From Promethearchaeia archaeon (GTDB taxonomy: Archaea; Asgardarchaeota; Lokiarchaeia; Sigyniarchaeales; SOKP01): a DNA stretch of 32,000 nucleotides. The notes below the pieces were generated by a model, which worked only from the letters and a program-made list of their open reading frames with translations, did no database searches and was not told the origin of the DNA. The stretch spans positions 1 to 32,000 of the forward strand of contig JAWOFX010000001.1 of the NCBI GenBank assembly GCA_046497275.1, read 5' to 3'. The translations under genes were made by a program, and so were the position numbers. Positions 10,487 through 17,669 of this stretch are shown here, one piece after another (the stretch's first letter is position 1; each line of letters starts with the position of its first letter).

Positions 10487-11959
10487 ATGATTTTCCAAGG
10501 TTTATACAATATATTAGATCTATACTTAAATGAAAGTGGAATATTTTATCAAAATGTAGACCAATATATTAAAAAAAATATAGATGATATTCCATTCGAT
10601 ATGAAGGATATAGATGAATCTTTAGAATTTATTCTAGAAAATTTAAAAGATCAACTAATTGAATTGGGTTTTTCTAAGGTAGAAATAGAAAATAAATTCT
10701 CTGACCCATTTCTTACTTTCGAGGAAATAGAGAAAAATAAGATAAGATCTGCCTTTGATTTATATAAAGAGAAAATAGCTCCGATATTTTATGAAATTTT
10801 GTTGGAAAAAATTGTTGATTATCTTGTTAATTCTGAAGTTGCTCCACTTATGTTGAATCTAAAATCCCAGGGTTTATTACCTCTTGAATTTATAATGGAA
10901 CTTAGAAAATTAAAAACAAAATTGGAGAATAATCCTGAAAAGATGGAAAATCTAAAAAAATATGTTAATATTAAAAATAAGCTCATACAAAAATTTAGGC
11001 AGAATAAGTGTGAAATTGAAAGGTTAGAAGATATCAGAGACCCAGGAGATAAGCTTCAATTAGTTTATATGATTTATAGAATTATTAATTTTTTTCATTT
11101 AGAGAGATTATTTGATTTTTCGCATATAGAAATTTACTTAGAAAATAATATAGATGAATGGCTTACTTCAGTTCCATTAATTACTTTAAAAAACCCAGAT
11201 ATTTACTTCTGCGGTCTTTATTTAGCAACTAATTTGGGAGTTGAAATTGATAAAGAAGAAGTAAAACGCTTCTTATTAGAGTTATACAATGAGTTTATCG
11301 ATGAATTTGACGCACCAATTATAGAAGCGACTGATCAGATTTATTATTTTTACAAATCCATTAAAATGATTAATTTGGATCTTTACGAAGAAGAAATTGA
11401 AAATTTAATGAGAGCTGATTCTTCTTTTTTCGAAAAAGATTACTTAAGAAGTTTAGAAACTTCACAACTCGTAGTTATTTTAAAATTATATAAATTATTA
11501 AGATTTTATGAAAAAATTGACAATTTAAAGATTAAAGCGATTTTAGATGAGATAAATAAACGAATTACACCAGAGGGAATTCTTCAATATAGAGATGGCA
11601 TAATATCATCTGAGGCATCCTATTATGTATTATTTAATGCATATATGAGAGATGAATTAGAATACCTTAAGAATTTTAAAATTTTAAATAGTGTTGTTGA
11701 GAGAATTTATAGGAATCTAGAAATTATCGATTTTTGTAGGAATACTAATTTTGATTTAGTGAGTGAAATTTTTTATTCTTGTGAAAGCTTAAAACTCTTT
11801 AATTGTATTGAAACAAAAGAAATGATATTCCATTTAGCACGGTATCTTTTTCCTGAGGGGATTCTTGAGAATGGATTGTTTAAGAGGGGGATTGACAGAA
11901 AAGCAGCAAAGTTTCGTCATCTAAAAGTAAATAAGTTGACAGGGCAGACTATCTACTAA
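10487..11959 (+). CDS. Hypothetical all-alpha protein; C-terminal half weakly resembles alpha/alpha-toroid repeats
   Basis: 490-aa ORF with normal composition. Helical repeats ending in motifs such as SSEASYYVL, EATDQIYY and VSEIFYS. No catalytic motif recognised. Confidence 0.7.
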   Translation: MIFQGLYNILDLYLNESGIFYQNVDQYIKKNIDDIPFDMKDIDESLEFILENLKDQLIELGFSKVEIENKFSDPFLTFEEIEKNKIRSAFDLYKEKIAPIFYEILLEKIVDYLVNSEVAPLMLNLKSQGLLPLEFIMELRKLKTKLENNPEKMENLKKYVNIKNKLIQKFRQNKCEIERLEDIRDPGDKLQLVYMIYRIINFFHLERLFDFSHIEIYLENNIDEWLTSVPLITLKNPDIYFCGLYLATNLGVEIDKEEVKRFLLELYNEFIDEFDAPIIEATDQIYYFYKSIKMINLDLYEEEIENLMRADSSFFEKDYLRSLETSQLVVILKLYKLLRFYEKIDNLKIKAILDEINKRITPEGILQYRDGIISSEASYYVLFNAYMRDELEYLKNFKILNSVVERIYRNLEIIDFCRNTNFDLVSEIFYSCESLKLFNCIETKEMIFHLARYLFPEGILENGLFKRGIDRKAAKFRHLKVNKLTGQTIY

Positions 11960-12072: not shown

Positions 12073-13563
12073 GTGAAGTTTGAAGATTTTGAACTAATTT
12101 ATAAAGAGAATCGGGCTGAGATCAAAAATAAAGAAGAGATTCTAAAAGATTTAAAAGAAAAGATTGGAAAGAAAAATGTTTCAACTAATGAAATAGATCG
12201 AATGGCATACACCAGAGATTCATCGCTTATTTCATTAAATTGGACCATAGAAGGAAAAATTGCGGGACTACCTGATATTATTACATGGCCAGAAAATTCG
12301 AATCAAATTAGTGAAATATTAAAAATAGCAAATAGAGAAAAAATTCCTGTAGTTCCTTTTGCTGAAGGTTCTGGGGTTGTTGGAGGAGCGATTCCCATTA
12401 GAGGTGGAATAATAATCGATATGAAAAGATTAAATAAAATTATTGAAATAAATGATAAAAATCTATCTGTAACTGTTCAAACGGGAATGAATGGTATGAA
12501 TTTAGAGAGATATTTAAACTCTAAGGGATATACGGGAGGACATATCCCCCAGTCATTATATACATCATCAGTAGGGGGGTGGATCGCTCATAAAGCAGCA
12601 GGACAATTCTCTACTAAATATGGTAAAATCGAGGATATTATTTTAGGCATGCAAGTTATTTTATCAACTGGAGAGATTATAAATTTTGATCCTATAGCGA
12701 GATCCGCAACGGGTCCTCAACTTGATAAATATTTTATTGGTAGTGAAGGTACTTTAGGAATCGTTACGCAGGCGACCCTTAAAATTTGGCCCTATCCAGA
12801 AAAGAGAACCCTTATTTCATATGTTTTTCCAAAAATAGAGGATGCTTTAGACGCAGTCCGTTTAACTTTACGAGAGAATGTTTATCCTGCTGTAGTGAGA
12901 ATTTATGACGCTGATGAAACAGCAAGACATTTTAAACATATAGAAAAAGCCACAGATAAAGTGATGACCGTTTTTGTTTGCGAAGGTAATAAAGAATTAG
13001 TTGATTTAGAAGAAAAAATTACACGGGAAAAATGTAACGAACGATCTGGTGTGGATTGTGGAGAAGAACCAGTAGAACATTGGTTTGAAACACGATTCAA
13101 AGTAACTGAAACTTCTATGTTTCCACCATATAAAATCGTTGCTGATACCATTGAAGTCTCAATAATGTGGGATAAAGCTTCTGAATTATATCATTCTGTA
13201 ATTGGATCCACAAGTAAGGTGGAAGGTAATTTATTAATTACTGCTCATGTCTCTCATTTTTATCCAAATGGAGCTGGTTTTTACTTTACTTTTGGAGGTG
13301 TTCCCGGTAAAGGAAAATCTGAATTTGATTTCTATAAAGAATGTTGGGATGCTACAATTAAAGCAGTTTTGGATTCTGGTGGTTCTATTGCACATCATCA
13401 TGGAATAGGAGTCAATCGTTCTCACTGGATGGAAAGGGAATGGGATAATGGGTATGAAGTAATGAAAGAGTTTAAGAAAGTTCTTGATCCAAATAACATT
13501 CTTAATCCAGGAAAAATATATGAAAAAACATGGAAAAAATCAACAGATGGAGGTGGTGATTAA
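12073..13563 (+). CDS. FAD-linked oxidoreductase, alkyldihydroxyacetonephosphate synthase (AGPS)-like, VAO/PCMH family
   Basis: GHIPQSLYTSSVGGWIA..AAGQFSTKYGKIEDI, GSEGTLGIVT, PAVVRIYD, HVSHFYPNGAGFYFTF, AHHHGIG, DPNNILNPGK. GTG start. Confidence 0.9.
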   Translation: MKFEDFELIYKENRAEIKNKEEILKDLKEKIGKKNVSTNEIDRMAYTRDSSLISLNWTIEGKIAGLPDIITWPENSNQISEILKIANREKIPVVPFAEGSGVVGGAIPIRGGIIIDMKRLNKIIEINDKNLSVTVQTGMNGMNLERYLNSKGYTGGHIPQSLYTSSVGGWIAHKAAGQFSTKYGKIEDIILGMQVILSTGEIINFDPIARSATGPQLDKYFIGSEGTLGIVTQATLKIWPYPEKRTLISYVFPKIEDALDAVRLTLRENVYPAVVRIYDADETARHFKHIEKATDKVMTVFVCEGNKELVDLEEKITREKCNERSGVDCGEEPVEHWFETRFKVTETSMFPPYKIVADTIEVSIMWDKASELYHSVIGSTSKVEGNLLITAHVSHFYPNGAGFYFTFGGVPGKGKSEFDFYKECWDATIKAVLDSGGSIAHHHGIGVNRSHWMEREWDNGYEVMKEFKKVLDPNNILNPGKIYEKTWKKSTDGGGD

Positions 13564-13565
13564 AA

Positions 13566-14921
13566 ATGGGGATATTTGATACTTTAAAAAAATATAAATG
13601 GATGCTTCCACTAATTCAAGACGCTGAAAGAAATGTGAGACGTAAGTTATTAAAAAATGTAAGAAAGAAAAAAGAAAATTTTTATCCCGAAGGCGAGTTT
13701 CATGCTGATATTAAGAATCTGATAAATTGCATGCTTTGCCCTAATATGTGTCGTTTTGATTGTGGAGTATTACAAGCTTCGGAAAATGAAGCACTATCTC
13801 CGGCTTATAAATCAAGAATAGGTTACTTTCTGACAACAAATAAAATAGATCCCTCTGATCCAAAAAATAAAGAATTTGTTGATTTGATGTACAAATGTTC
13901 AAATGAAGAAAATTGTAAAATATGGTGTCCATTTGAATTTTCCGTTGTATCTCTGCTTGAGACGGTAAGAGATGATCTTAATGATAAAGGATTAATGCCC
14001 GAATATTGTAAAAAACAAATCAAAAAACTCCAAGATACAGGCACTATTGAGGATTATAATATTTTTAAAACCTATAAGGAAAAAGGTATCGAAAATATTG
14101 AAACGGAAGGAGATGATGATGTTTTTTATTATATTGGGTGCCAAACTATGAAGTTTCCGGAAGTTGTAAAGGCGAACATAGAGTTTCTAAAGAAAGCAGG
14201 GATAAAATTCTCAACAAATTTAGATCAGAGAGTGTGCTGTGGGGCTCCAGCTCTTAACATTAGAGATTTTGAAACTAGTAAAAATCTTGCAGAAAATAAT
14301 CTTGACCTCATTAAAAAAAGCGGTGCAGAAATTGTTGTTTCTGACTGTCCCGGATGCGTGAATTCACTCAAAAATCGATATCAAAAATTTGGCATTGGAA
14401 TTGAAATTGAAAAACAAAAACAAGGAGAGAATGAAGAAGAAGCTGAGGAGAAAACTGAAAAAGTGATTAAAAGTTATTTTGAGGAGGGACCCAAGATAAT
14501 TCATATCGTAGAATATATAAAAATATTAGTTGAAGAGGGCAAGTTAACGTTTGAAGAACTTCCAGAGAAATATCAGAAAGTCACAATTCACGATCCTTGT
14601 CTTTTAGCGAGAAATTTAAATGATATCACGTCCATTAGAACAATTTTGGAACATATTCCTAACTTAGAAATTGTGGAACCAATTTATACTAAGGATTACA
14701 CACACTGCTGTGGATGGAGTGGTACGGTTCATTGGGCAGATAAAGAGATTTCTATAAAAGAAGCGGAGAATAGAATAGACGAGCTAAAAGAGACTGGTGC
14801 AAAAATTATAGTTACCGCTTGTCCAACTTGTGAACTCGGCTTGGCTTATGGCATTAAGGATGAGGATAAAAAAGAGATTGAAATAAAAGATCTATCCGAA
14901 TTGATTAGCAAAGCAATTTAA
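13566..14921 (+). CDS. Fe-S oxidoreductase with two CCG domains (GlpC/GlcF/HdrD-like)
   Basis: CMLCPNMCRFDC, degenerate CSNEENCKIWCP, YIGC, CCGAP, DCPGC, HDPC, CCGW, ACPTC. Lies 2 nt after the flavoprotein stop, with SD GGAGGTGG. Confidence 0.9.
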   Translation: MGIFDTLKKYKWMLPLIQDAERNVRRKLLKNVRKKKENFYPEGEFHADIKNLINCMLCPNMCRFDCGVLQASENEALSPAYKSRIGYFLTTNKIDPSDPKNKEFVDLMYKCSNEENCKIWCPFEFSVVSLLETVRDDLNDKGLMPEYCKKQIKKLQDTGTIEDYNIFKTYKEKGIENIETEGDDDVFYYIGCQTMKFPEVVKANIEFLKKAGIKFSTNLDQRVCCGAPALNIRDFETSKNLAENNLDLIKKSGAEIVVSDCPGCVNSLKNRYQKFGIGIEIEKQKQGENEEEAEEKTEKVIKSYFEEGPKIIHIVEYIKILVEEGKLTFEELPEKYQKVTIHDPCLLARNLNDITSIRTILEHIPNLEIVEPIYTKDYTHCCGWSGTVHWADKEISIKEAENRIDELKETGAKIIVTACPTCELGLAYGIKDEDKKEIEIKDLSELISKAI

Positions 14922-15104: not shown

Positions 15105-16658
15105 TTGGCGAAAATGGAACAAAAAATATTAATATTAGATATTGGAACTACCAATATAAAAGCTCTCTTATTTAATAAAAAAGGAGAGATTGTTGGTGAA
15201 GCTCGTCGTCGTCCAGATTATATTATGAAAGAAAAAGGGCAAGTAGAGCAAGATCCCAATCAAATTTGGCAGTATAGTAAAGAAGCTATCGAAGAAGTCA
15301 TCGATAAGAATAATTTGAGCGCCTCAGATATAAAGTGTATGGGGATTACCACTCAAAGAGCATCTTTTTGTATATGGGACAGAAGAAATGGAAAATTATA
15401 TTCTAATATAATTACTTGGCAAGATAAAAGAGCTGCAAAATATGCTCAAGAAATGTCAAATAGTTTCTTTTTTAAATTCTTGAGAGGGTTTGCAAAAGTT
15501 GCACATATGTTGACTAAAAGTACAAAAATGCTTACAGCTTCAATGTTACAATTCAATTCAGATTACGCATCTATAAGAACTTCTTATTTTCTAAAAAATA
15601 ATCCCAAATTGAATGAATTAATTCAAGATCCAAAAACTACTATTAGTTGGGGTACAATTGATACGTGGGTACTATGGAATCTTACAGAAGGAAGAGTTTT
15701 TGCAACTGATTACTCCAACTGCTCCTCAACAGGTATGTTGGATCCTTTTACATTAGATTGGAATTCTATTGTTATCGATAAATTAAAAATACCTCTATAC
15801 ATTTTACCAGAAATAAAAGATACTAATGGTGATTTTGGAGAGACTAAACTCTTTGGCAGTGGCGAGATCCCTATTCGAAGTGTAGTGGCAGATCAACAAG
15901 CATCTCTATTCGGTCAATGTTGCTTTGATTATGGAGATATGAAAGTCACTAATGGGACGGGTTCGTTTGTAGATTTAAATACTGGAGATGAACCTTTCGC
16001 ATCTAAAAGGAAATTATATCCCTTAGTGGCATGGAGATTAAATGGAGAGGTTTCTTATATCTTGGAAGGGCTAAGTCATAACTCAGGAAACATAATAGAT
16101 TGGATAAAAGAGGAACTCGAGCTATATGATGATCCGAGCGAAACTGAAGAGATGGCAAAAAGCGTTGAATCAACTGAAGGAGTATTTTTCCTACCAACAT
16201 TCACTAGTGGACTTTCATTCCCCTACTGGGATCCTTCGGCAAGAGGGAACATTTTTGGAATAAGCTTAAAAACTAAGAAAGAACATATAATAAGAGCTGT
16301 TTTAAATGGTATTTGCTTTAGAATAAAAGATTTTGTTGAAGGTATTATTGCAGATACAGGTATATCAGTCGATAGAATAAAAGCTGATGGAGGTGTGTCC
16401 CAAAATACCTATGTTCTCCAATTCCTAGCAGATATACTTGATATGGAAGTAGAACATTCTCAGAATCCAGAGACAACAGCTCTTGGAGCTGCTTTTATCG
16501 CAGGATTAGCAACTAACTTCTGGAATTCTAGAGAAGAGTTAAGGGAAATCAGAAAAATCGATAAAATTTATGAACCACGAATGAGTAAGGAGAGAAGAGA
16601 AAAACTTTATAACAATTGGAAAGATATCATTCGGCGTTCCCTCAATTATAATTTCTAA
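15105..16658 (+). CDS. FGGY-family glycerol kinase-like protein, GK5-type
   Basis: LDIGTT, EQDP, GITTQRAS, WQD, GTIDTW, TDYSNCSSTG, ADQQASLFG, GTGSF, ADGG, ETTALGAAFIAG. Likely true start is ATG at 15114. Confidence 0.9.
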   Translation: MAKMEQKILILDIGTTNIKALLFNKKGEIVGEARRRPDYIMKEKGQVEQDPNQIWQYSKEAIEEVIDKNNLSASDIKCMGITTQRASFCIWDRRNGKLYSNIITWQDKRAAKYAQEMSNSFFFKFLRGFAKVAHMLTKSTKMLTASMLQFNSDYASIRTSYFLKNNPKLNELIQDPKTTISWGTIDTWVLWNLTEGRVFATDYSNCSSTGMLDPFTLDWNSIVIDKLKIPLYILPEIKDTNGDFGETKLFGSGEIPIRSVVADQQASLFGQCCFDYGDMKVTNGTGSFVDLNTGDEPFASKRKLYPLVAWRLNGEVSYILEGLSHNSGNIIDWIKEELELYDDPSETEEMAKSVESTEGVFFLPTFTSGLSFPYWDPSARGNIFGISLKTKKEHIIRAVLNGICFRIKDFVEGIIADTGISVDRIKADGGVSQNTYVLQFLADILDMEVEHSQNPETTALGAAFIAGLATNFWNSREELREIRKIDKIYEPRMSKERREKLYNNWKDIIRRSLNYNF

Positions 16659-16841: not shown

Positions 16842-17669
16842 ATGCCTTACTTCAAAAATCAAGAGGGTTACAATCTATATTATGAAGAATTCAACCCTCA
16901 ATCGAAACGGTGTACAGTAATATTACTCCACGGATTTGCCTCATCTGTATCTTTCTTTAAAGAACAAATAAAAATATTAAAGGAATATTATCGTATCATT
17001 TGTTTTGATGCTTTAGGGCATGGGCGCAGCGATCATACCAAAGAGATTAATTTATCTGGCAATATACGACATCAAATTATTCGAGATCTTGAAGATTTAT
17101 TAGAATATCTGGGGATTAAAGGTCCTTATGGAATTATAGGACATTCATTGGTAGGGGGAATGATTGCTCAACTGATATGTCAAAAACATATGGATGATGT
17201 AAAGTTTCTTATTCTCCTCAATTCAGGTTACATTAACACAGATAATGTTATTCGAAATATTTTCTACAATCTCCTTCCTTATATGGTGAGAATGAATTTT
17301 TTAGATGTTGTAAATAATTCAATAGGAAACATTTTAGATAAAACAACACCTTATATAGTTCAAGCATTATCAAACTCCTTGTATAATGTGAAAATGTCTA
17401 AAGAAAAATTATTAATGCATATAGAAGATCAGATTTTTGGAATGATAAATGAGATTAAGGAATATGATCCCTCATATATCAAATGTCCGACCCTTATTAT
17501 CGGAGGTAGGTTAGATAATTTTGCACCAGAACAAATGTCAGAGAGTTTAGCGGAAAGAATTCCAAATTCGAGATTAGAAATAATTGATATGGCTGGGCAT
17601 TTTGGACCTGCCCAGAGAGAAGAAACTTATAATAAAATAATTTGCGATTTTATTCGATCCATTAAGTAA
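16842..17669 (+). CDS. Alpha/beta-fold hydrolase
   Basis: LLHGF oxyanion motif, FDALGHGRS, GHSLVGG (Ser), GRLD (Asp), AGH (His). Confidence 0.88.
   Translation: MPYFKNQEGYNLYYEEFNPQSKRCTVILLHGFASSVSFFKEQIKILKEYYRIICFDALGHGRSDHTKEINLSGNIRHQIIRDLEDLLEYLGIKGPYGIIGHSLVGGMIAQLICQKHMDDVKFLILLNSGYINTDNVIRNIFYNLLPYMVRMNFLDVVNNSIGNILDKTTPYIVQALSNSLYNVKMSKEKLLMHIEDQIFGMINEIKEYDPSYIKCPTLIIGGRLDNFAPEQMSESLAERIPNSRLEIIDMAGHFGPAQREETYNKIICDFIRSIK

Follow-up and report, generated by a model that had tools for sequence, protein, structure and literature searches.

The window analysed here is a stretch of 32,000 nucleotides from a Promethearchaeia archaeon (assembly GCA_046497275.1, contig JAWOFX010000001.1, positions 1 to 32,000 of the forward strand). 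It is AT-rich with a G+C content of ~30%, and the closest relatives of its encoded proteins are found in metagenome-assembled genomes (MAGs) of Promethearchaeota/Lokiarchaeia. Our analysis concerns a gene for a kinase of the FGGY family, which by sequence comparison very probably belongs to the glycerol kinase 5 (GK5) subfamily. GK5 is a poorly characterised animal enzyme that is linked to skin lipid and sterol regulation. The gene and the segments of its product that bear on this assignment are the following:

15105..16658, + strand: open reading frame (ORF) of the GK5-type FGGY kinase, intact, 517 amino acids counted from TTG
15357..15362, + strand: Arg85-Ala86, corresponding to Arg83-Glu84 of GlpK; Arg is retained, Glu is replaced
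15417..15419, + strand: Trp105, corresponding to the glycerol-stacking Trp103 of GlpK
15432..15560, + strand: GK5-specific remodelled segment, residues 110–152, with helices 111–118, 121–137, and 140–146
15468..15515, + strand: 16-residue insertion F122–T137, core of the amphipathic helix 121–137; not in canonical GlpK
15561..15566, + strand: Asp153-Tyr154, corresponding to Tyr135-Phe136 of GlpK
15891..15893, + strand: Asp263, corresponding to the catalytic base Asp245 of GlpK; invariant
15966..15968, + strand: Phe288, corresponding to Phe270 of GlpK; invariant

An in-frame ATG at 15114 marks the position where homologues begin, the Atlas record of the protein starts at residue 4, and an AT-rich, TATA-like sequence precedes this ATG. 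It is probably the real start codon rather than the TTG at 15105. The kinase shows the two-domain architecture of the GK5 subfamily, with Pfam matches to FGGY_N (residues 8–270, E = 3.6e-45) and FGGY_C (residues 280–469, E = 2.2e-37) and only one other match, BcrAD_BadFG, which is related to FGGY. Its AlphaFold2 model, calculated from a 53-sequence alignment, has a predicted local distance difference test score (pLDDT) of 94.9. The two top-scoring curated prokaryotic models are both GlpK models, and the kinase stays below the cut-off of each (NF000756, 474.6 versus 498 bits; TIGR01311, 461.1 versus 590.35 bits). The next NCBIfam match, xylulokinase, reaches only 177 bits. Likewise, the closest solved structures are glycerol kinases (e.g., 3g25 with 385 bits), and the alignment to 3g25 revealed additional residues in the kinase past the WQD motif. 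The same genome encodes a second FGGY kinase of 514 amino acids (L002; G000:C156:31764-33308), which possesses the complete GlpK signature residues and lacks the insertion, yet its TIGR01311 score is only 365 bits and its branch is very long.

Profile comparisons placed the kinase with GK5. Against home-made hidden Markov models (HMMs) of 16 sequences each, it scored 613 bits with the eukaryote-only GK5 model and 482 bits with the canonical GlpK model, and after deletion of residues 109–160 it still scored 541 and 468 bits, respectively. Its TIGR01311 score of 461 bits lies between those of frog GK5 (452 bits) and Polysphondylium GK5 (464 bits). In a reciprocal search with the GK5 of Cavostelium, a Promethearchaeota GK5-like protein scored higher (325 bits) than canonical GlpKs (~257 bits). 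The Atlas clusters nearest to the kinase, of which one is rich in Spirochaetota, one chordate, and one arthropod, are all automatically named Glycerol kinase 5. An earlier note, made from the letters of the window alone, had quoted several motifs of the protein and described the later ones as GK5-like rather than GlpK-like. All quoted motifs are present in the ORF at 15105–16658, and of the later ones QCCF and LYPLVAW are indeed common to GK5-like sequences and not to canonical GlpK. The kinase is another member of the known GK5 subfamily, and homologues in public MAGs are already automatically labelled ‘glycerol kinase 5’. A literature search that paired GK5 with Asgard or archaea found nothing.

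The insertion is located between the equivalents of GlpK Trp103 and Tyr135. In a MAFFT alignment with bacterial and Asgard GlpKs, the stretch from Trp105 to Asp153 comprised 47 residues in the kinase versus 30–31 in the canonical enzymes. It contained no internal gaps relative to the GK5 proteins of frog, tuatara, fish, tunicate, insects, mite, molluscs, sponges, Polysphondylium, and protosteloid amoebae, so that the gapless alignment after WQD, which the earlier note had proposed for human GK5, was upheld against vertebrate, insect, sponge, and amoebozoan sequences alike. Polar residues common to the prokaryotic and eukaryotic members are found at positions K/R124, T/S137, K/R141, and S146 and also at R158, and F150 is shared as well. 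In the AlphaFold2 model, region 111–146 forms three ordered helices with a pLDDT of at least 92 each and thus no disordered segment; the earlier note had suggested it as a putative membrane- or lipid-binding helix. Helix 121–137 is strongly amphipathic (hydrophobic moment muH 0.59), with one aromatic and one basic face. The amphipathic character had been noted before, together with an excess of about 20 amino acids over GlpK; the former was confirmed, and the measured length of the insertion is 16 residues. The insertion had also been regarded as specific to animals, which is incorrect, as it occurs in Amoebozoa and in many prokaryotes too. In the Bathyarchaeia/Actinobacteria-labelled group and the Thermoplasmatota/Theionarchaea group of GK5-like kinases the insertion is longer (about +26 residues).

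We searched with this region alone, using residues 96–181 as a phmmer query in an exhaustive search against 1.84 billion representatives (E ≤ 1e-3). Each named protein among the 32 matches was a eukaryotic ‘glycerol kinase 5’, with a mite GK5 as the best full-length match (E = 4.7e-8), and no canonical GlpK was among them. The remaining scanned matches were FGGY_N fragments, apart from P0122, an ENA metagenome protein of 1233 amino acids that ranked second. P0122 was rejected as an artefact in which weak matches are summed over tandem repeats of ~52 residues, and it is probably a translated DNA repeat. Because the search returned GK5 proteins and no canonical GlpK, the likeness of the insertion region to GK5 goes beyond chance.

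The phylogeny of the kinase was inferred with IQ-TREE (LG+C20+F+G4 with posterior mean site frequencies, PMSF) from 79 sequences and 463 columns, with the insertion columns left out. The GK5-like sequences formed a clade with 100/99 support apart from the canonical GlpKs of bacteria and Asgard archaea. Its earliest branches were the Bathyarchaeia/Actinobacteria-labelled group and the Thermoplasmatota/Theionarchaea group. A subclade, again with 100/99 support, contained the eukaryotic GK5 proteins, one Promethearchaeota sequence, and an Asgard clade (96/89) with a nested Spirochaetota group. Within this Asgard clade, the Lokiarchaeial group that includes the window kinase was sister (100/100) to the Spirochaetota group, and this nesting suggests inter-domain transfer in either direction. 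The eukaryotic GK5 sequences were monophyletic (99/91) and had long branches, with Amoebozoa beside Metazoa and sponges in a basal position. A constraint that united the eukaryotes with the Thermoplasmatota, Bathyarchaeia, and Actinobacteria groups, picked after inspection of the tree, was 33.9 log-likelihood units worse and was rejected by the approximately unbiased (AU) test (p-AU = 0.007). The eukaryotic GK5 proteins of Amoebozoa and Metazoa thus form a single clade, with proteins of Asgard archaea as its closest relatives, an arrangement to which horizontal gene transfer may have contributed. Among the Amoebozoa, GK5 was found in one Polysphondylium genome and in three transcriptomes (Cavostelium, Nematostelium, and Soliformovum).

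The close orthologue of the window kinase is patchily distributed: among 68 sampled genomes of the same family, 10 had it. Other Asgard families possess more distantly related GK5-like copies, often along with a canonical GlpK (e.g., in genome G259), and outside Asgard archaea and eukaryotes GK5-like members were found in Thermoplasmatota, Bathyarchaeia, Theionarchaea, Spirochaetota, and Actinobacteria-labelled MAGs. The earlier note had named the protein a candidate eukaryotic-signature protein. In the strict sense it is not, because GK5-like members are also carried by non-Asgard archaea and bacteria, but the part of the proposal that links eukaryotes to Asgard archaea stands, as eukaryotic GK5 groups with the Asgard copies in the 100/99 clade.

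For GlpK, five specificity-determining residues have been defined (Arg83, Glu84, Tyr135, Asp245, and Phe270; PMC3245297), glycerol contacts are also given in PMC2680290, and it is via exactly these specificity-determining positions that FGGY families change substrate (PMC3245297). All five residues were present in 16 of 16 canonical sequences. The window kinase has R85, A86, D153, D263, and F288 at these positions and therefore matches the GlpK signature at three of five. The Glu84 column was filled by A, S, G, N, T, or C in all 60 GK5-like rows with a residue there (two more were gapped), and the Tyr135 position varied across the family, followed mainly by H, Q, or Y. In contrast to these losses, the Arg, Asp, and Phe signature residues were retained in every filled GK5-like row, the Trp103 position in 61 of 62 sequences, and the catalytic Asp and the glycine motifs were invariant (D12, G14, D263, G284, G286, G429, and G430). 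Since Arg, Asp, Phe, and Trp are kept while Glu84 and Tyr135 are lost, the catalytic machinery appears to be intact and the far side of the pocket rebuilt, which is a trait of the whole family, animal GK5 included. The window protein is thus predicted to be a catalytically competent, ATP-dependent FGGY kinase.

With these data the possibility can be weighed that the protein is an ordinary GlpK with a lineage-specific insertion whose likeness to GK5 arose by convergence. GlpK is indeed its best match among the curated prokaryotic families and solved structures, and the raw identity to GlpK is about 38–40%. However, the GK5-like clade persists in a tree without the insertion columns, the GK5 HMM outscores the GlpK HMM even when the insertion is removed, the kinase and GK5 have both lost Glu84 and Tyr135 and both carry the QCCF and YPL motifs, and the region-only search was specific for GK5. 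Within the sampling used, these results refute convergence, which we regard as extremely improbable. The proposal that the protein belongs to a prokaryotic branch of GK5 has accordingly been sustained: it scores better with the GK5 than with the GlpK model, it groups with GK5 in the tree, and its insertion aligns.

The genes surrounding the kinase in the window include the following:

12073..13563, + strand: FAD-linked oxidoreductase identified by Pfam, AGPS-like, with the AGPS structures 2uuu and 4bby as best PDB matches
13566..14921, + strand: CCG-domain iron-sulfur protein (GlpC/LdhH/HdrD-like), which always adjoins the flavoprotein in related loci
16842..17669, + strand: alpha/beta-fold hydrolase, esterase/lipase-like, downstream of the kinase and syntenic with it in Lokiarchaeia only

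The flavoprotein scored 206 bits to AGPS versus 143 bits to D-lactate dehydrogenase among its PDB matches, and it retains the equivalents of AGPS Arg419, Tyr578, and His615–617 (HHH). It belongs to the VAO/GlcD superfamily of hydroxy-compound dehydrogenases, and the CCG protein is presumed to be its electron-transfer partner. The best matches of the hydrolase were enol-lactonase, RutD, and esterase models, all far below their cut-offs. Two further ORFs in the window had no Pfam match, one at 217–2568 (783 amino acids) and one at 10487–11959 (490 amino acids). In many Lokiarchaeial loci, a counterpart of the latter directly precedes the AGPS-like gene (51–81% identity).

In Lokiarchaeia, the gene order is unknown ORF, AGPS-like flavoprotein, CCG iron-sulfur protein, kinase, alpha/beta hydrolase, MazG-like protein, and SAICAR synthase, and it holds down to about 62% kinase identity. 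This synteny alone is weak evidence of a functional link, because unrelated housekeeping genes are equally syntenic. In some Lokiarchaeial loci the junction between the CCG and kinase genes carries inserts of 1.8–2.6 kb, which contain a sulfatase gene on the opposite strand (L008:4309-5802) or an ORF of 768 amino acids without Pfam match (L022:3583-5889). With such unrelated contents, the inserts were ruled out as the home of the missing genes for glycerol 3-phosphate (G3P) dehydrogenase.

A tighter arrangement was found in distant lineages. Bathyarchaeia (L116), Thermoplasmatota (L119, L120), and an Asgard genome of family f22 (L134) carry a six-gene operon, in which genes often overlap, for the flavoprotein, the CCG protein, a GlpA-like protein (DAO plus Fer2_BFD), a NOX-like protein, a DUF1667 protein, and the GK5-like kinase. 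The flavoprotein of this operon is 52% identical to that of the window. Further f22 genomes have a three-gene version, and in an f2 genome the pair lies within about 5 kb. Altogether, the flavoprotein/CCG pair was found beside GK5-like kinases in five archaeal lineages (L116, L119, L120, L131–L134). That the f22 kinases beside AGPS-like genes could be canonical GlpKs, through displacement by a paralogue, was considered and dismissed, as they aligned as GK5-like. The flavoprotein/CCG/dehydrogenase module was absent at the Spirochaetota-type loci L024 and L122, at the second Promethearchaeota locus (L121), or at the Actinobacteria-labelled locus L118. The Spirochaetota GK5-like kinases (L023–L025, L122) are 53–59% identical and reside in a bacterial gene context with PilZN3, SpoIIE, and HisKA genes. 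As to other neighbours, the Bathyarchaeial kinase has a PAP2 phosphatase beside it, and the Actinobacteria-labelled copy is surrounded by acyl-CoA ligases and dehydrogenases.

In the genome of the window, the GlpA-like/NOX-like/DUF1667 trio is encoded on another contig (C51). This trio constitutes the archaeal-type G3P dehydrogenase known from work on Thermococcus. Near the trio (L130; G000:C51:33000-48000) are genes for a heliorhodopsin, a Ras/Roc-type GTPase of 778 amino acids, and a longin-domain protein. The same region also contains a LarA lactate racemase gene and, adjacent to it, one for a fusion of a GlcD-like flavoprotein with 4Fe-4S domains, which together are a candidate for a separate lactate-utilisation system.

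We consider it most likely that the window protein is an ordinary catabolic kinase, i.e., a competent kinase of the GK5 subfamily that converts glycerol and ATP to sn-glycerol 3-phosphate. We assign a probability of roughly 0.58 to this statement as a whole, glycerol included. The subfamily, the homology of the insertion, the conserved catalytic residues, the gene neighbourhoods, and the phylogeny are shown by the data, and from these we infer what is phosphorylated, what is formed, and what the insertion might do. The G3P formed would then be oxidised to dihydroxyacetone phosphate (DHAP) by the GlpA/NOX/DUF1667 dehydrogenase encoded on C51. This route from glycerol via G3P to DHAP is the most economical reading because of the operons with G3P dehydrogenase in distant lineages and the presence of the trio on C51. 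The amphipathic helix is placed between Trp105 and the Tyr135 position in the sequence and, as it accompanies the loss of Glu84 and Tyr135, may be part of a pocket rebuilt relative to GlpK. Mouse GK5 is reportedly annotated with glycerol kinase activity (Zhang et al. 2017, PNAS).

Several points weigh against this assignment. We know of no assayed enzyme from the prokaryotic GK5-like family. Raw identity does not discriminate between the subfamilies, because the kinase is no less similar to canonical GlpK (38–40%) than to eukaryotic GK5 (34–40%). The tree sampled no eukaryotic GK1/Gut1 sequences, and the constraint used for the AU test was chosen post hoc. In Lokiarchaeia, the CCG–kinase junction is variable among related genomes and the G3P dehydrogenase genes lie outside the kinase cluster. 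Moreover, the recurrent AGPS-like flavoprotein partner with its intact Arg/Tyr/HHH residues points to a C3-phosphate lipid precursor and not to free glycerol. Finally, because two of the five specificity residues (Glu84 and Tyr135) are replaced family-wide, the kinase is not classed as a GlpK under the scheme of PMC3245297, and its substrate may differ.

The last two points lead to alternatives in which another compound is phosphorylated. The kinase might act on a substituted glycerol (1-O-alkyl-, 1-acyl-, or isoprenyl-glycerol) and serve, along with the flavoprotein/CCG pair and, in genomes that have it in the operon, the G3P dehydrogenase, in the salvage or breakdown of ether or ester glycerolipids, with the insertion as a hydrophobic channel or interfacial helix. 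We regard this as unlikely, even if it would account for the loss of Glu84 and Tyr135, which hydrogen-bond the glycerol hydroxyls in GlpK, for the position of an amphipathic, aromatic/basic helix between two pocket residues, for the recurrence of the AGPS-like flavoprotein next to the kinase, and for lipid-type neighbours such as the alpha/beta hydrolase in Lokiarchaeia, the PAP2 phosphatase in Bathyarchaeia, and the acyl-CoA enzymes at the Actinobacteria-labelled locus. However, the insertion is predicted to consist of ordered, high-confidence helices, the pairing with a CCG protein indicates that, in contrast to AGPS, the flavoprotein catalyses a net dehydrogenation, and a GlpA-type dehydrogenase operon fits free G3P. 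Furthermore, 52 of the 68 sampled genomes of the family had the flavoprotein/CCG pair, but only 10 had the kinase, and in most relatives the pair thus functions independently of it. A recent survey did not find the plasmalogen pathway in Archaea, and a recent preprint assigns the orphan animal alkylglycerol kinase (1-O-alkylglycerol as substrate) to ACAD10, which is not an FGGY protein. The Pfam scan of the window kinase yielded only the FGGY_N, FGGY_C, and BcrAD_BadFG matches and hence no sign of homology to the kinase domain of ACAD10, the only enzyme assigned to EC 2.7.1.93, although no alignment to ACAD10 was made. The alkylglycerol or alkylglycerone kinase proposed in the earlier note thus relies on circumstantial pointers, namely the AGPS-like neighbour and two altered pocket residues, and is disfavoured by the G3P dehydrogenase operon and by the ACAD10 assignment.

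Taken further, the GK5-like kinase and the AGPS-like flavoprotein/CCG pair, with or without the GlpA-type dehydrogenase, could make up a hitherto undescribed pathway of archaea for glycerol lipids with ether or ester linkages, which might proceed from alkylglycerol via alkyl-G3P and alkyl-DHAP to DHAP and an alcohol. We find such a pathway quite improbable. Were it real, an archaeal module for lipid salvage would be the source of both eukaryotic GK5 and AGPS-type chemistry, and the substrate of animal GK5 would be a substituted glycerol as well. A similarly low probability applies to a kinase for another C3–C5 polyol or ketose (dihydroxyacetone, glyceraldehyde, or erythritol), whose phosphorylated product or a related 2-hydroxy compound would be oxidised by the flavoprotein/CCG pair. 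The specificity-determining positions, at which FGGY families switch substrate (PMC3245297), do differ from those of GlpK, and the partner flavoprotein is a member of the VAO/GlcD superfamily, but the kinase is far nearer to glycerol kinases than to other FGGY groups, as the xylulokinase score illustrates, and the operon link is to G3P dehydrogenase. The protein might also be mainly a binding or regulatory protein without catalysis, by analogy with mammalian GK5, which is said to bind the regulatory domains of SREBP. The insertion could offer a surface for protein interaction in that case. Archaea, however, have no SREBP, the operon context is metabolic, and the catalytic and ATP-binding residues are invariant in 62 GK5-like sequences, which makes a non-catalytic function highly improbable.

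With glycerol phosphorylation for catabolism as the preferred reading, our results have several implications. GK5 emerges as an old, mainly archaeal family, and the position of the eukaryotic clade beside the Asgard copies renders its evolutionary origin testable. The prokaryotic operon contexts provide concrete substrate hypotheses for GK5, and assays can address a defined structural difference, namely the loss of Glu84 and Tyr135 combined with a helical insertion that is conserved at the pocket. The data also bear on how Asgard archaea metabolise glycerol and glycerolipids, a matter of relevance to the question of the ‘lipid divide’. What the analysis adds to existing annotation is the placement of eukaryotic GK5 beside Asgard archaea, the pocket changes that run through the whole family, and a conserved module of flavoprotein, CCG protein, and G3P dehydrogenase.

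Compared with known systems, the kinase is closest to eukaryotic GK5, i.e., the human and mouse proteins and the ‘putative glycerol kinase 5’ of invertebrates, sponges, and Amoebozoa. It shares with them the FGGY architecture, the gapless 16-residue insertion at the same site, the absence of Glu84 and Tyr135, the QCCF and (L/F)YP(L/V) motifs, and sub-threshold GlpK scores, and in the tree it is placed as sister or near-sister. It differs from them in sequence (34–40% identity), in its archaeal host, which has no SREBP system, in its location next to an AGPS-like flavoprotein/CCG pair, and in its branch, as those of the eukaryotic proteins are far longer. Eukaryotic GK5, for its part, has a poorly defined biochemical role. 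With canonical GlpK (TIGR01311/NF000756; 3g25, 1bu6), the kinase has in common the fold, the domain order, the catalytic Asp, the equivalents of Arg83, Trp103, and Phe270, the ATP motifs, and 38–40% identity, and it probably catalyses the same reaction. Unlike canonical GlpK, it scores below both cut-offs, carries the 16-residue insertion, lacks Glu84 and Tyr135, and falls into a separate 100/99 clade.

The upstream neighbour of the kinase resembles AGPS (2uuu, 4bby) as its best PDB match and in the equivalents of Arg419, Tyr578, and His615–617. In contrast to AGPS, it has no N-terminal extension and is paired with a CCG iron-sulfur subunit, as is usual for dehydrogenases. Neither FAR nor GNPAT partners were seen, and no plasmalogen pathway is known from Archaea. 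Archaeal glycerol catabolic clusters, in which a glycerol kinase is combined with the GlpA/NOX/DUF1667 G3P dehydrogenase, are reported for Thermococcus kodakarensis. The six-gene operons differ from such clusters in that they begin with the AGPS-like flavoprotein and CCG genes, and in the genome of the window the dehydrogenase genes are unlinked to the kinase. The resemblance to archaeal glycerol clusters is found in both settings: the GK5-like kinases of Bathyarchaeia, Thermoplasmatota, and f22 end an operon of GlpA-like, NOX-like, and DUF1667 genes, and the same trio is present on C51.

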